Positions 192-6,712 of a DNA stretch of 6,712 nucleotides are shown here, one piece after another (position 1 is the first letter of the stretch; each line of letters starts with the position of its first letter). The notes under the pieces were generated by a model. That model ran no database searches, had not been told where the DNA came from, and saw only the letters and a program-made list of their open reading frames with translations. The stretch covers positions 1 to 6,712 of the IMG/VR virus record IMGVR_UViG_3300018405_000745; one strand, given 5' to 3'. Made by a program: the position numbers and the translations under genes. The stretch is from a virus.

Positions 192-309
192 GCGGTTTGC
201 CCCCTGACCGAGAAAGTAATCAGTCGGTACAAAGCGCGATAAGCATGAGAGCAAGAGACCATGCGAGCAATAGCGGCAGGCCCCAATCCGAATAAAGAAC
301 ATCCATTTG

Positions 310-678
310 TCAGCTTCCCTGGTACTCGTGGGAGTTCGGAGACGATGCTGCGATCTTGCTGGCCAAGGTCGATAACCAGACCTGCTGTTCTAGCTGATCA
401 GGTGTGACTGGGCCACCAGATAAACGCCTGACCGCAATTTCTCGAGCCTTGTCCTGGAGCATGCAAACAATTGCAGTGTTCTCAGCCTCCGTGAGCAGAA
501 CAGCGCCGGGAGCTAGTTTAGTAACGTTACCTTGTGCCGCTTTCTGCCTCTCACGGTATGCGCGCTGTTTCTCGGCTGGCGTCATGGCTTTACCAGTCGA
601 AGGACGACCACGGCGCTTGCGCTGGGAAGGCTCGTCCAGGGGAAGTGGCTGTGTGGCTTTATCTGTCGGGTCGATCAT
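310..678 (-). CDS. 122-aa hypothetical protein with a basic, AT-hook-like N-terminus (RKRRGRPSTGK...AEKQRAYRERQK). It is the second gene of the accessory pair.
   Basis: An ATG at 678-676 overlaps the TGA of the upstream gene (ATGA). An AGGAAG Shine-Dalgarno-like element lies 7 nt upstream. The ORF is the same sense as the rest of the phage. RGRP flanked by K/R matches the AT-hook core. Confidence 0.7.
   Translation of the reverse strand: MIDPTDKATQPLPLDEPSQRKRRGRPSTGKAMTPAEKQRAYRERQKAAQGNVTKLAPGAVLLTEAENTAIVCMLQDKAREIAVRRLSGGPVTPDQLEQQVWLSTLASKIAASSPNSHEYQGS
520..531. promoter_or_regulatory. Third exact copy of AGTAACGTTACC (contains the perfect palindrome GTAACGTTAC), inside the 122-aa gene
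   Basis: The 12-mer is identical to those at 945-956 and 1008-1019. Confidence 0.5.
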
Positions 679-914
679 GATGCCGCTTCCTGGGCTTTCC
701 AGATTGCAACGTCTACGTCATCGAACTCTTCAATTTGCAAAAGCCCAGCCGCATAAAGGGCTTGTGCGAAACCGCGCAACCGTTCCGGCTTTAGCTCGCC
801 CCGAATCGCGTCATCTAGGTAGGTATCGAGCACTTCATTTAGCAGGTTCGTTCTGTCCAGGCCTAGGAAGTGGTATAGATCGTTCAAAGCGGGGAGCAGG
901 TTAAGGCGTTTCAT
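675..914 (-). CDS. 79-aa acidic hypothetical protein (MKRLNLLPALNDLYHFLGLD...), the first gene of the accessory pair
   Basis: The ATG at 914-912 is preceded by AAGGAG (923-928) at 8-nt spacing. The gene lies downstream of a perfect TATAAT. Its stop overlaps the next start. I count about 14 D/E against 8 K/R. The track's 173-aa version begins at a TTG inside zot and is not favoured. Confidence 0.65.
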   Translation of the reverse strand: MKRLNLLPALNDLYHFLGLDRTNLLNEVLDTYLDDAIRGELKPERLRGFAQALYAAGLLQIEEFDDVDVAIWKAQEAAS

Positions 915-939
915 TGCAGTCTCCTTGGTTCGTGCCCTA

Positions 940-967
940 ATTATAGTAACGTTACCGTAAATGTGAT
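940..967 (-). promoter_or_regulatory. Candidate sigma70-type promoter of the 79/122-aa operon
   Basis: The minus strand has a perfect -10 TATAAT (plus-strand 940-945). The best -35 is ATCACA (962-967), 4 of 6 matches with a 16-nt spacer. The spacer consists largely of the GTAACGTTAC palindrome. Confidence 0.55.
945..963. promoter_or_regulatory. Promoter-proximal operator-like repeat AGTAACGTTACCgTAAATG
   Basis: A 19-nt direct repeat of 1008-1026 with one mismatch. It contains a 10-bp perfect palindrome and sits between the -35 and -10 elements. Confidence 0.6.
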
Positions 968-1007
968 AATTACATATTCCTATCAGAGCAGAGCGTGCAA
1001 TAGACAA

Positions 1008-1026
1008 AGTAACGTTACCATAAATG
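1008..1026. promoter_or_regulatory. Promoter-distal operator-like repeat AGTAACGTTACCaTAAATG
   Basis: It lies 63 bp (about six helical turns) from the proximal copy. It overlaps the zot stop codon (1015-1017). Confidence 0.6.
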
Positions 1027-2283
1027 GCCGGGCTTGCCTGATCCGACCACGACGATATCCGAAGTAGACGAACCCTCAAGCTGCGCACCTCTGGCCACGC
1101 GATCTGCGCCAAGGCTATCGACGGTGCGTCGATCGACACGACCACGGATATCAATAGGCCACGATCTGGCGACGTAAGCGACGGATTGTTTCTCAAGCAA
1201 GAGGCCGTATCCGGTCCTGGTCACAGTCCAGCCCAGGGCCTGAATCTCACTCACGCGGAAACGTTCCTTGATGTGATACGACGAATCGAGCAGCTCGATC
1301 TCGCCCATCAGCTCGCGACCGGGCTTATCACTATCGATGATGGCGGTGGCCCTGATCTGATACTGCTGAGCCATCTTGTCCAGGTAGTCGATTGGTGGAG
1401 GAAGCGCGTCTACCTTCTGATCGGTGGCGGATGCAGCAGGTGCACTCGCCTGCATGGATGGCGGCTCGGGATTGGTGAGCCCGGATGACGGCTCGACGCG
1501 CTGGACAGTGACAGCCGATGAAGGCTGCGTAGATGCAACGGCCCCGCCCGTTCCGGTGAAAAACCCATAGAGGTGATACACGGCGTAGATCGCGCCAACG
1601 AAAACGAATGGCACGCCTAGGGAGAGCAGCTTAGAGTTCTTCAGAACGTTGGTGCGCTCGGTCTGGTAGACGCTGCCCTTGACCGTCTCGCGACGGTGAC
1701 TGGAGTAGAGCCCGAAATAATTCGAGTCGTAGGAGCGGACGCCAGAGCCGATCTTGACGAACTTGCCCTTCGCCTGTTTTTGCCATTGCTCCCACTTGTA
1801 CTGATTGGGTCGGCCAACCGCCTGAAGTTTGAGGAAATAGATGATGTCCTCGATCCGGCTGCGGATGATCTTGTGCACGTCATCGCGGTCCTGACCCATG
1901 ATGACGATCTCTAGCCCGCGGTGCCGGTGTTCGGTCCAGAACTTTTGCTGGTTGAGCGGCAGCTTGTAGTTGCCGCTCGGAAAGTAGTCCTGAATCTCGT
2001 CCCATACGATCATCGCGTTATCAGGCGTCTTGTCGGCGAACTCGTTCTTCACGCGCTCGATGTCACCGGCTGCGCCATCCTGCTCAGCAGGCTCGACGTA
2101 GATGAGCAGCATGCGGACGTACTCGACAGGCTCGTCGAGGAGCTGGGCGAACTTCTCCCAGTTGATGCCGCGAATATTGGTAACGACCTGACGGCCTGCC
2201 TTCAAGGCGGGCAGGATGTGAAAAACGCAGGCTTCGTAGCTCTTGCCAGCTCCCGGCAGCCCCTCGTGGAAGTGGATAGCCAT
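1015..2283 (-). CDS. zot: pI/Zot-family morphogenesis NTPase, 422 aa
   Basis: The N-terminus MAIHFHEGLPGAGKSYEA carries a Walker A motif, GLPGAGKS (nt 2239-2262). The Walker B motif is MIVWDEIQ. A single TM segment, LLSLGVPFVFVGAIYAVYHLYGFF, falls mid-protein and is followed by a P/S/A-rich linker and a C-terminal domain. The ATG lies 3 nt after the pVI-like stop, with an AGGTGG Shine-Dalgarno element. Confidence 0.93.
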   Translation of the reverse strand: MAIHFHEGLPGAGKSYEACVFHILPALKAGRQVVTNIRGINWEKFAQLLDEPVEYVRMLLIYVEPAEQDGAAGDIERVKNEFADKTPDNAMIVWDEIQDYFPSGNYKLPLNQQKFWTEHRHRGLEIVIMGQDRDDVHKIIRSRIEDIIYFLKLQAVGRPNQYKWEQWQKQAKGKFVKIGSGVRSYDSNYFGLYSSHRRETVKGSVYQTERTNVLKNSKLLSLGVPFVFVGAIYAVYHLYGFFTGTGGAVASTQPSSAVTVQRVEPSSGLTNPEPPSMQASAPAASATDQKVDALPPPIDYLDKMAQQYQIRATAIIDSDKPGRELMGEIELLDSSYHIKERFRVSEIQALGWTVTRTGYGLLLEKQSVAYVARSWPIDIRGRVDRRTVDSLGADRVARGAQLEGSSTSDIVVVGSGKPGHLW

Positions 2284-4948: not shown

Positions 4949-5326
4949 ATGCACGAAAAGAGCCCACCAACTACCGTCGAGTGGTTGGATTTGGTGAAGG
5001 AGCGTTGCGGAGTCGGGAGTGACTACAAGCTGGCCGAGCTACTGGGCGTCACACGCCAAGCAATCAGCCAGCAGAGAGCGGGGAAGCAGTGCATGTCGAT
5101 CATGTCAGCAGTGCGAGTTGCCGAGGCGCTGAAGCTGCCTTCGCAGGCCGTGATTGCTGGCGTGATGTACTACGGAGACCGGGAGACGAATCGCGGATTT
5201 TGGGCGGATCGATGGGCCCGTGCATGGCCAGCAGTTCAAAAACGAATCGTGCAACCGCCTCATGGCCACCAGTCTCAGCCAATCGGAGCAGAACAGCGCG
5301 CGCCTGATATGGCTGGCGAAGGATGA
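4949..5326 (+). CDS. HTH DNA-binding regulator (XRE/CI-like repressor candidate), 125 aa
   Basis: The helix-turn-helix reads DYKLAELLGVTRQAISQQRAG. A GGGAG Shine-Dalgarno element lies 5 nt before the ATG. It is the only credible plus-strand gene and is divergent from the structural operon, like repressors of temperate inoviruses. Confidence 0.75.
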   Translation: MHEKSPPTTVEWLDLVKERCGVGSDYKLAELLGVTRQAISQQRAGKQCMSIMSAVRVAEALKLPSQAVIAGVMYYGDRETNRGFWADRWARAWPAVQKRIVQPPHGHQSQPIGAEQRAPDMAGEG

Positions 5327-6470
5327 TCCGCCACTGATCGCGGGTGACCTGCGAGACGCGCAAAGCGGTAGCAATCTCTTCCTGGTTGATTTCCTCATCG
5401 GTCTGGTCGGCGATCTGAAAAAGCGCCTTGAGGCCGGGAGTCCAGCGAAGCTGGTTGTAGCCCTTGAATGCAGCAGAAAACTCAGCAAACAGCGCGCCGG
5501 AACGGGCATCGCCTTCGGCGTAGGAGCGGAGCAGATCAAAGGGCGTGCGACCCTTGCCAGTCCCGCGCTTGGAATTCGCCTTGGTCACTTCGCTGGCCGC
5601 TTCCCATCGGGGTTCGGTGCCCCACTTGGCGACATACTCCGCAGCCGACTCGGCCTGCTGAATGTGCACGCCACGCTCCCTGGACGGAGCCGGGAGACCA
5701 GCAGCGACGGACGAAGTTTTCCAGACGGCAAACAGCAGGCGATGGAGCATGGCGCGCTGGCGAACCGTCAGCGGCTCGGGGAACAGCCAGAGTTCGTGGA
5801 AGTGCGGGTGCCAGCCGTTGGCGTTACCGTGCGTTACCTCTAAGGCCCGAATCGAACCCACCACGTCGAACAACTCGCGGAGGTGCTTGTAATCGCGATG
5901 CTCGCGCATTTTCTTCGTCGCTACGCGGAGCTTGCCCATCAGCTCGGAAAGCACATCCATGCGCGCATGGCGCACAGTGAGCGTGACCATTTCGACCCCG
6001 CCACCGGCTGAAATGTGCGTGTCGATTGCCTGACGCACTTCCAGTTTGCGACGTTCCGAGATTTTGGCGGAGCAGATCGGGCAGGACCAGACAGAAGAGC
6101 AGGTCTGAAGGCCCGAGTAGTGAGCCTTGCCAGTGGCGGAATCCTTCAGGATGCCGACAAACCCGTCCTTGTTGGTGAGCGTTCGAATGCAATGCCTGAC
6201 GCGATGGTCTGGCAGGAGCCGCCGAGCGGCGTCCTGAAGCGAAAAACGCGCTTCGCGGGCCTGTTCTGGCGTGAACTCGGGTACAAACTCACGACGCTTG
6301 TTGTCGAACGTAAACCGTTGAATTTCCCCGGTTTTCTCGTCGACAACCTCCTTAATTCTGGCCGCGAATTTCGCAGTAGTAACAAGGGCGCCTCCGGCGG
6401 CCCGCGCTTCGCTTGCGGGACCGCCCGGATGCGCCTTTCGCACCTGGGCGCTTTCTGTTATAGAATCCAC
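5100..6470 (-). CDS. HUH-superfamily rolling-circle replication initiator, 456 aa with a GTG start
   Basis: The motifs run in the order CSSVWSCPIC (Cys cluster), VTLTV, HPHFH (HUH, nt 5796-5810), then AAEYVAKW (candidate catalytic Tyr, nt 5634-5636). This order resembles pC194/pUB110-type (Rep_1-like) initiators. The start is uncertain. The GTG at 6470 has GAGG 7 nt upstream, and no ATG occurs before residue 161. Confidence 0.85.
   Translation of the reverse strand: MDSITESAQVRKAHPGGPASEARAAGGALVTTAKFAARIKEVVDEKTGEIQRFTFDNKRREFVPEFTPEQAREARFSLQDAARRLLPDHRVRHCIRTLTNKDGFVGILKDSATGKAHYSGLQTCSSVWSCPICSAKISERRKLEVRQAIDTHISAGGGVEMVTLTVRHARMDVLSELMGKLRVATKKMREHRDYKHLRELFDVVGSIRALEVTHGNANGWHPHFHELWLFPEPLTVRQRAMLHRLLFAVWKTSSVAAGLPAPSRERGVHIQQAESAAEYVAKWGTEPRWEAASEVTKANSKRGTGKGRTPFDLLRSYAEGDARSGALFAEFSAAFKGYNQLRWTPGLKALFQIADQTDEEINQEEIATALRVSQVTRDQWRIILRQPYQARAVLLRLAETGGHEAVARFVFELLAMHGPIDPPKIRDSSPGLRSTSRQQSRPAKAASAPRQLALLT
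5821..5838. repeat. Tandem GCGTTACC-GT-GCGTTACC, period 10
   Basis: There are two copies of the CGTTACC half-site found in the AGTAACGTTACC motifs. They lie inside rep, encoding HGNAN just upstream of HPHFH. Confidence 0.5.
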
Positions 6471-6589: not shown

Positions 6590-6712
6590 AACACCAAGGG
6601 CTTTGCCCTTGTCATCCCACTCTTCGCCAGAGGGTCAGAGGGCAGGGGAGAAAAGCTTTCCCCTGCCCTATGACCTAAGCTTGATCTGGTCGGAGGAGGG
6701 TCAAGGGTCGGC
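6590..6712. repeat. Right copy of the terminal direct repeat
   Basis: Identical to 1-123, with a repeat offset of 6,589 bp. Confidence 0.95.

Follow-up and report, generated by a model that had tools for sequence, protein, structure and literature searches.

A putative autoregulated accessory operon built on an undescribed family of candidate DNA-binding proteins in an inovirus genome

Inoviruses, which live as chronic parasites of pathogens, are widespread, and the majority of their accessory genes have no known function. The DNA considered here is the IMG/VR record IMGVR_UViG_3300018405_000745, a stretch of 6,712 nt (hereafter the window) that holds a complete circular inovirus genome, and the subject of this work is a small module located downstream of its zot gene, at positions 310-914 on the minus strand. 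The module consists of two genes, named here A and B, which encode an acidic protein of 79 residues and a basic protein of 122 residues, respectively, and which are preceded by a promoter and by copies of a short palindrome. A first-pass annotation of this DNA had described the coordinates, sizes and opposite charges of the two products, as well as the ATGA motif in which the stop codon of A overlaps the start codon of B (675-678), and had placed the module in the accessory-gene region of the genome; all these elements are present as it described them, and the location is supported. A third palindrome within B, an open reading frame (ORF) of 28 aa at 220-306 and the circularity of the genome are additions to that description. 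The features of the locus, listed below in the direction of transcription, suggest an accessory operon that regulates itself and is centred on a DNA-binding family not described before.

1009-1018, no strand: candidate operator O2, an exact copy of the palindrome GTAACGTTAC; overlaps the zot stop codon, 63 bp upstream of O1
940-969, minus strand: sigma-70-like promoter, with the -35 element TTATCA/ATCACA at 962-969 and the -10 element TATAAT at 940-945
946-955, no strand: candidate operator O1, an exact copy of GTAACGTTAC; in the promoter spacer, abutting the -10 box
921-926, minus strand: Shine-Dalgarno sequence AAGGAG of gene A, 6 nt upstream of its ATG; also found in A-type loci
675-914, minus strand: gene A, an ORF of 79 aa, isoelectric point 4.50, charge -6.4; occupant of a variable upstream slot
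675-678, minus strand: ATGA overlap of the A stop and B start codons, providing for translational coupling of A and B
310-678, minus strand: gene B, an ORF of 122 aa, isoelectric point 9.66; putative operator-binding autorepressor
538-678, minus strand: conserved N-terminal module of B (residues 1-47, from alignments), with leader, RGRP core and basic helix
521-530, no strand: candidate operator O3, an exact copy of GTAACGTTAC inside B, at codons G50-N51-V52-T53
334-510, minus strand: C-terminal domain of B (about residues 57-115), modelled by AlphaFold2 (AF2) as two long helices; swapped in relatives
220-306, minus strand: probable third gene, encoding the 28-aa hydrophobic peptide MDVLYSDWGLPLLLAWSLALMLIALCTD; starts 4 nt after the B stop codon
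173-190, minus strand: hairpin AGCCG-CAG-CGGCU with a U4-5 tail, weakly resembling a terminator; in sequence that close relatives conserve

Purifying selection acts on A as well as on B, the ratio of nonsynonymous to synonymous differences (pN/pS) being 0.21-0.26 for A and 0.02-0.14 for B. A promoter scan of positions 1-1300 of the window returned one sigma-70-like site with 10/12 matches (two overlapping matches against 0.6 expected). The palindrome GTAACGTTAC is present in the genome as three exact copies, against a chance expectation of 0.08 and with none of 200 shuffles reaching three, and all three fall inside the module. The first-pass annotation had proposed that the module has its own promoter with palindromic operators, and this is borne out by the three exact copies and by the position of O1 between the -35 and -10 boxes. 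Scanning the genome with up to two mismatches revealed no further full site beyond chance, and no palindrome near the Rep gene (5100-6470) or in the region upstream of it. At the level of half-sites, the window contains 14 copies of GTAAC where 5.5 are expected, six of the 14 belonging to the three operators, and two direct GTTAC half-sites 10 bp apart (GCGTTACCGTGCGTTACC) are found inside the Rep ORF at positions 5823-5837, where they are probably due to chance.

The module was compared with ~60 related loci, in which the architecture of the promoter is retained. Of 24 aligned loci from otherwise divergent phages, 23 have the same GTAACGTTAC-TATAAT junction and one (L002) reads TAAAAT instead, and the longer string ATTTAyG-GTAACGTTAC-TATAATTA, in which the operator flanks are AT-rich, is virtually invariant in the 24 aligned promoters. 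The pairing of O1 and O2 at 63 bp is likewise conserved in most related loci. The copy inside the coding sequence of B has also been kept: among 31 B genes it is exact in 16 and within one mismatch in 24, compared with 0.56 exact copies (maximum 3) and 5.2 copies within one mismatch (maximum 11) when the synonymous codons of the same genes are resampled. It is moreover maintained in two reading frames (xNVT and S/Q-R-Y-E) and in many peptide contexts. Because of this excess over synonymous resampling and of the use of two frames, sequence comparison indicates that the intragenic operator is selected as a DNA element, beyond any codon requirement. Loci without an internal copy carry a copy of GTAACGTTAC downstream of B, so that a distal operator seems to be general. 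In the window, O3 lies where the conserved N-terminus of B gives way to its variable C-terminus.

The protein encoded by B belongs to a large family defined by its N-terminus. Homology searches recovered 154 homologous protein clusters that have only the first ~47 residues in common (MIDPxDKxTQxLPLDE...RGRPxTGKAMTPAEKQRAYRERQK), and whose C-termini are unrelated, many of them being coiled coils. The common part comprises the acidic leader MIDPxDKxTQxLPLDE, the RGRP core (residues 23-26) and a basic helix (residues 34-50). In the window protein, residues 20-30 read RKRRGRPSTGK and residues 35-46 read AEKQRAYRERQK, which are the AT-hook-like segment and the following stretch to which the first-pass annotation had drawn attention. 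Across the family G24 is invariant, and R23, R25 and P26 are conserved at 90% or more. In ten diverse loci the N-terminal codons of B display a pS of 0.52 and a pN of 0.09, and the conservation of this region therefore acts on the protein. Most of the homologues reside on contigs of ~7 kb, a length typical of inovirus genomes, and others are found in P. aeruginosa phages, in Ralstonia RSS-type phages and on small Aeromonas Mob plasmids; the named homologues of A and B are from Stutzerimonas and Pseudomonas. The cassette is unannotated apart from one "RepB" label on the homologue of phage 42-1, and no description of the B family was found in the literature.

The AF2 model of B comprises a disordered leader (residues 4-26, predicted local distance difference test score (pLDDT) <50), one basic helix (residues 34-50, ~70-78) and a confident two-helix C-terminal domain (residues 64-112, >90). 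This C-terminal helical domain is, from the model, a probable dimerisation module, and a reading of residues 57-112 as a beta-alpha-alpha unit of the ribbon-helix-helix (RHH) kind is possible. Searches with family models gave no helix-turn-helix (HTH) or RHH match for B, and neither A nor B has a match in Pfam, NCBIfam, PADLOC or the PDB sequences. Foldseek searches with the AF2 models returned nothing below E 0.1 (B against PDB; A against PDB and BFVD). Among the PHROGs, residues 1-54 of B match four families of unknown function. The first-pass annotation had also asked whether the two proteins could be placed in virion or assembly families. The profile and fold searches gave no such match: neither protein matches coat, pIII, pVI, pI or pIV proteins, even though the Zot, pVI-like and pIII-like neighbours are recognised. 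A beta-clamp-binding function for the QxLPL portion of the leader was considered and dropped, as the motif does not fit.

The palindrome travels with B. Within one mismatch, it is found within ~1 kb of the B homologue in 43 of the 43 IMG/VR loci tabulated, usually as two upstream copies (typically at -111 and -48) plus an internal and/or downstream copy 0.7-0.9 kb away. When 2.9 million viral contigs were searched for a pair of palindromes 63 bp apart, 39 IMG/VR contigs were retrieved, 33 of which adjoin a B N-terminus, one a divergent 83-aa B-like gene and five tail-fibre-like coding repeats. These five (L063, L067, L068, L074 and L088) are false positives of the DNA-pattern scan, in which 21-aa "GNVT" repeats (…SVQGNVT(S/T)LTTSVNTI…) yield pairs of GTAACGTTAC 63 bp apart by coding alone. 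The divergent gene is located on a tailed-phage-like contig (L091, 4625-4932), where four GTAACGTTAC sites are present and where the B-like protein (MEGNVTRKYSSNAEKQRAYRARRK...) is encoded between ORFs of 489 and 500 aa that are putatively terminase-like and portal-like. A scan of 596 Gb for the 16-mer GTAACGTTACTATAAT, which by our own arithmetic is expected ~280 times by chance on both strands, gave 94 matches, mostly chance occurrences in unrelated taxa, six of which carry a B homologue.

The sequence of the palindrome also changes together with that of the basic helix. In the window type, to which blackswan219-1 belongs as well, the helix AEKQRAYRERQK is paired with the operator GTAACGTTAC. 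The P. aeruginosa phages 42-1 and 5a-DAzarov, the B proteins of which differ in their C-termini, combine the helix AERARRYRANKK with the operator GTGACGCGTCAC, which again abuts TATAAT and again has internal copies. In Ralstonia phage RSS30, an unannotated 225-aa homologue (L050, 4474-5151) has the helix AERQAAYRARRK and the operator GTTAC-N7-GTAAC; inside its gene the full site CCGTTAC-N5-GTAACGG is present twice, encoding KSVT(L/P)SNGN, with a third, wider-spaced copy upstream of these two within the gene. Homologues on Aeromonas plasmids have GTCACCGTTAC upstream of the gene, within it and at its 3' end. The latter are small ColE1-like Mob plasmids with a 101-aa B-like gene directly upstream of mobC (L051, 4776-5081; L196, 1201-1506), and in pO23AP2 the B-like gene and mobC overlap by 4 nt. 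The 5a-DAzarov record (L194, PQ758391.1) is 7.26 kb long and has the same B-type cassette as the inovirus 42-1; its filing under Caudoviricetes in GenBank is probably a taxonomy error.

This joint change of half-site and helix is the strongest available argument that the N-terminal module of B reads the palindrome. Since the segment formed by the RGRP core and the basic helix is the sole part conserved across more than 150 homologues, and since it both co-occurs and co-varies with the palindromes, B is, from sequence, most likely a DNA-binding protein acting through this segment. The same observations lend support to the proposal of the first-pass annotation that the second gene encodes a DNA-binding protein rather than a classic toxin.

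Gene A presents a different picture. Its product is predicted by AF2 to adopt a compact four-helix fold (pLDDT 92.5), and the searches gave no DNA-binding family match for it. An exhaustive profile search retrieved 17 representatives, all unannotated, which form a small, Pseudomonas-restricted family with the core LExLxxYxxDAxxGxLxxxRLRGFxQGLxAAGxL. Members of this family belong to arrays of small hypothetical genes, located either on Pseudomonas plasmids or in chromosomal regions that resemble integrated elements, with KorA, ParB/KorB, CsrA and polyvalent-protein domains among the neighbours; one of them lies two genes upstream of a Lar restriction-alleviation gene, which is a weak association with anti-defence only. 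No B homologue was found near the A-family genes on those plasmids and arrays, and A is present in two of 48 related B loci.

The limits of homology around A are informative in this respect. A near-isogenic locus (L003, 89-95% identical elsewhere) loses homology at O2 and recovers it at the B start codon, having a 70-bp promoter with a single O1 in place of the 333-bp segment formed by O1, the promoter and A. An otherwise unrelated locus (L035) matches the window from O2 through O1 and A to the N-terminus of B, the match stopping ~20 bp before O3, and a third one (L030) has only the promoter and the N-terminal codons of B in common, exactly up to O3, together with a different slot gene. Across phages, at least five unrelated proteins of 74-83 aa, mostly acidic, occupy the slot upstream of B, and a 59-aa membrane protein is encoded there in a Pseudomonas replicative form. 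The 4-nt overlap with B (ATGA or GTGA) is kept by eight of nine slot genes. Because the near-isogenic locus lacks A, the mosaic limits fall where they do in the other two, and unrelated slot genes keep the overlap, A appears from its sequence context to be optional, interchangeable cargo and not an obligate partner of B.

In close relatives, the position after B looks like a second variable slot. The 28-aa peptide gene of the window has a GGAAG Shine-Dalgarno sequence inside the last codons of B; the same peptide with one substitution is encoded in L002, and unrelated, equally hydrophobic peptides of 36 and 31 aa take the same place in L001 and L003, respectively (Kyte-Doolittle maximum 2.4-2.9). 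The peptide gene is followed by conserved sequence with the weak hairpin and U-tract. This hairpin (173-190) fails the terminator scan and folds no better than shuffles, and no Rfam element, tRNA or canonical terminator was found for the locus. In typical relatives, B is oriented opposite to zot and converges with a gene of ~78 aa, named here gene C (phrog_13909, unknown function), whose product starts with MIMRCAVDLE...DYPRLVAE and continues as a coiled coil. Gene C overlaps the 3' end of B (L005-L042; e.g., L014, 5497-5733, minus strand), and a fourth GTAACGTTAC precedes its start by ~54 nt. Gene C is absent from the window and from its close relatives, in which the B module is inverted, after zot and on the same strand.

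Taken together, we regard it as reasonably probable that the locus is a self-regulated accessory operon arranged around B, with B as a repressor that acts by binding the palindromes. The promoter located directly after zot would fire once the double-stranded replicative form appears, giving rise to a single mRNA from which A and B, coupled via ATGA, and probably the 28-aa membrane peptide are produced. B would then dimerise by its C-terminal helices, and the N-terminal module would bind GTAACGTTAC at O1, O2 and O3; recognition of the GTAAC half-sites would fall to the basic helix, and the RGRP arm would touch the AT-rich flanks. Occupancy of O1, between the -35 and -10 boxes, would block RNA polymerase and switch the promoter off, closing a negative feedback loop in which O2 and O3 would assist. 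The 63 bp that separate O1 and O2 amount to about six helical turns and would fit cooperative binding on one face of the DNA, and O3 may contribute by looping or as a roadblock, although the fact that its distance from O1 varies speaks against strict phasing. The expected outcome is that expression surges early and that the cargo then settles at a low, steady level during chronic infection. A would be one of several exchangeable small cargo genes under the control of B, with the peptide after B in a second slot.

Several points weigh against this operon model. B has no recognised DNA-binding fold, and the AF2 confidence of the N-terminal module is low to moderate. The related loci are not independent samples, and the counts given above are inflated to that extent. 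Most relatives have no slot gene, so that the control of cargo cannot be the sole role of B, and many have a convergent gene C under an operator of its own that the window lacks. Moreover, the distance between O1 and O3 is ~196 bp in the absence of a slot gene and 425 bp in the window, and this variation makes a DNA loop of fixed phase unlikely. Finally, the strict conservation of the coupling between slot genes and B could mean that the slot proteins act with B, and a host factor, instead of B, could be what binds the palindromes.

The last two points lead to alternatives of their own. A and B could form a regulator/anti-regulator pair, in which the acidic, helical A, made at a fixed ratio through translational coupling, titrates the basic N-terminal module of B off the operators. 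The opposite charges of the two proteins, the ATGA-type coupling in eight of nine slot genes, and the L035 locus, in which A is joined to a B with the same N-terminus and another C-terminus, as expected if A touches the N-terminal module, all fit this idea. It is unlikely, however, in view of the at least five unrelated protein families that share the slot, of the many B genes (the majority) with no upstream partner, and of the A-family genes on Pseudomonas plasmids and in arrays with no B nearby. As for a host transcription factor that recognises GTAACGTTAC, this would leave the N-terminus of B with another role, such as the binding of a host protein by the acidic leader, which is strikingly conserved for a disordered segment; the lack of a recognised DNA-binding fold in B is also consistent with it. 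This explanation is nevertheless very unlikely, as the operator changes with the basic helix of B across Pseudomonas, Ralstonia and Aeromonas and even within P. aeruginosa phages, and the dual palindrome is found almost only beside B.

A role in replication or maintenance has to be weighed as well, with B as a CopB-like regulator or with the palindrome cluster as a cis site for copy number, partition or recombination. The homologue of phage 42-1 is annotated as "replication regulatory protein RepB", B has local motif similarity to CopB/RepA2 (PF10723), the sites are spread over 0.5-1 kb that include coding sequence, mosaic breakpoints coincide with operators, and homologues reside on small plasmids. 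We consider this quite unlikely, given that the three sites all lie in the module and none at Rep or upstream of it, that no member of the B family reaches PF10723 and the similarity extends over 20-22 residues, that the invariant position of O1 at the -10 box favours transcriptional control, and that the genome encodes no partition NTPase. The type II toxin-antitoxin (TA) or addiction architecture put forward in the first-pass annotation draws on the small size and overlap of the two genes, on the opposite charges of their products and on the palindromes at the promoter, and inoviruses are known to carry TA modules (for example, PMC12328805). Yet no toxin, antitoxin or defence family or fold was found for A or B in Pfam, NCBIfam, PADLOC, PHROGs, the PDB sequences or Foldseek searches; A and B do not regularly co-occur, as A is found elsewhere without B; and the DNA-binding features are in the second gene and not in the first. 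B stands alone in most phages, including the near-isogenic L003, and is therefore unlikely to be a toxin in need of an antidote. The TA proposal is not supported, and we rate it as highly improbable.

Beyond the module, the window carries an exact terminal direct repeat of 123 nt (1-123 = 6590-6712), from which the circular unit length, after joining the overlapping assembled ends, is 6589 bp. All the replication and virion genes are on the minus strand, where those assigned by Pfam are as follows.

5100-6470, minus strand: Rep (Pfam Rep_1)
1015-2283, minus strand: Zot/pI (Pfam Zot, E 1.3e-32)

The other minus-strand genes are a single-stranded DNA (ssDNA)-binding-like gene, small coat-type genes, a pIII-like gene and a pVI-like gene. 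Among GenBank phages no close relative was found, the top match being blackswan219-6 with 80% identity in the Rep region. On the plus strand, positions 4949-5326 encode an HTH repressor-like protein (phrog_4441 and phrog_638, with weak HTH_3 and P22_Cro matches), antisense to the 3' end of Rep, with which it overlaps by 227 nt, and divergent from the ssDNA-binding-like gene across a 70-bp spacer. At the start of the window, positions 1-86 contain a long imperfect hairpin element (GGTCAGAGGGCAGGGGA...TCCCCTGCCCTATGACC, inverted repeat at 44-86) followed by a CTTGAT motif, for which no tRNA or Rfam match was found. This element is 94% identical to a stretch of the P. aeruginosa phages 42-1 and 62-2, the remainder of whose genomes differs, and positions 110-214 are 88% identical to blackswan219-1, again with the rest of the genome differing. 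The hairpin element may serve as an origin, as a packaging signal or for attachment.

Among known systems, type II TA modules resemble the locus in having a pair of small genes whose stop and start codons overlap, behind a palindromic promoter suggestive of autoregulation. The resemblance ends there, as the locus shows neither a toxin or antitoxin fold nor regular co-occurrence of its two genes, the putative DNA binder is the second gene, and A is an acidic four-helix protein. With regard to the way in which B may contact DNA, the relevant comparison set comprises AT-hook proteins, the GRP arm of the DNA-binding domains of Hin-type recombinases and the basic region of Skn-1. B likewise has an R-G-R-P core ahead of a basic helix, and its operators have AT-rich flanks, although the Pfam AT_hook model matches only one of 14 B-family sequences, and weakly (E 0.014); the analogy points to a possible mechanism and is no proof that B belongs to one of these families.

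The nearest known protein by motif, through local similarity only, is CopB/RepA2 of IncFII plasmids (PF10723, RepB-RCR_reg), a transcriptional repressor that acts on the repA promoter. Both are small basic proteins of mobile elements with the motif G-[KR]-[AP]-M-T-x-x-E-K-Q-x-A...R-x-R followed by a small C-terminal domain. An hhalign comparison gave a probability of 66-70% (E ~5e-5) over only 20-22 columns of the basic motif (GKAMTPAEKQRA versus GKPMTDSEKQMA). Unlike CopB, B has no operator near Rep in the window genome, and the C-terminal domains of the two proteins do not align. The "RepB" label of the phage 42-1 homologue was traced to PF10723, membership of which was rejected because only the short motif is in common: with hmmscan no member of the B family reaches PF10723 even at E up to 10, when RepA2 of R100 scores 3e-44. 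Since no B homologue reaches this family and no operator lies near Rep, the label is unsupported as a function, and the present analysis corrects it.

The small peptide encoded after B can be compared with PfsE of phage Pf4, a 30-aa inner-membrane peptide that blocks type IV pili (PMC8764522). Both are very small hydrophobic inovirus peptides, and size and hydrophobicity are the only link; an actual relationship was considered and rejected, as the peptide lacks the YXWGW motif and is encoded at another genomic position.

By architecture, the nearest systems are the acr-aca operons, in which anti-CRISPR (Acr) genes are followed by the gene of an anti-CRISPR-associated (Aca) autorepressor (PMC6765145, PMC9410906, PMC13551039). 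The locus would work in a similar manner but falls outside that group. Aca1-13 are HTH proteins and Aca14 is an RHH protein, whereas B is neither HTH nor recognised RHH; in addition, most B loci are devoid of upstream cargo, no slot gene is a known or predicted defence inhibitor, one of the operators is inside the coding sequence of the regulator, and the carrier is an inovirus. In common with acr-aca operons, the locus has a strong promoter with inverted-repeat operators in or next to the core promoter (here O1 abuts TATAAT and O2 is 63 bp upstream), variable small genes first and a conserved regulator gene last, and a regulator that in some cases also acts on a neighbouring operon, as suggested by the operator that precedes the convergent gene C in most relatives. 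It is possible, though doubtful at present, that B represents a new structural class of Aca-like anchor autorepressor of mobile elements, in which an RGRP core and a basic helix read GTNAC-type palindromes, with one operator in the regulator's own coding sequence and with two exchangeable cargo slots framed by conserved DNA. The upstream slot would then hold small, mostly acidic soluble proteins, and the downstream slot membrane peptides of ~30 aa.

The B cassette marks a plug-in point of exchangeable small genes in phages and plasmids of Pseudomonas/Stutzerimonas, Ralstonia and Aeromonas. Should B be confirmed as an operator-binding repressor, a compact new DNA-recognition module would be added to the repertoire, and the operators within coding sequence would gain a functional explanation. 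If the Aca-like role is also correct, the slot genes would be new anti-defence, host-takeover or superinfection-exclusion factors of inoviruses, and B could guide guilt-by-association searches in elements of Pseudomonas, Ralstonia and Aeromonas. In either case, as with Aca for anti-CRISPRs, the regulator would be a genomic anchor for finding new cargo, in this case the counter-defence or exclusion factors of filamentous phages.

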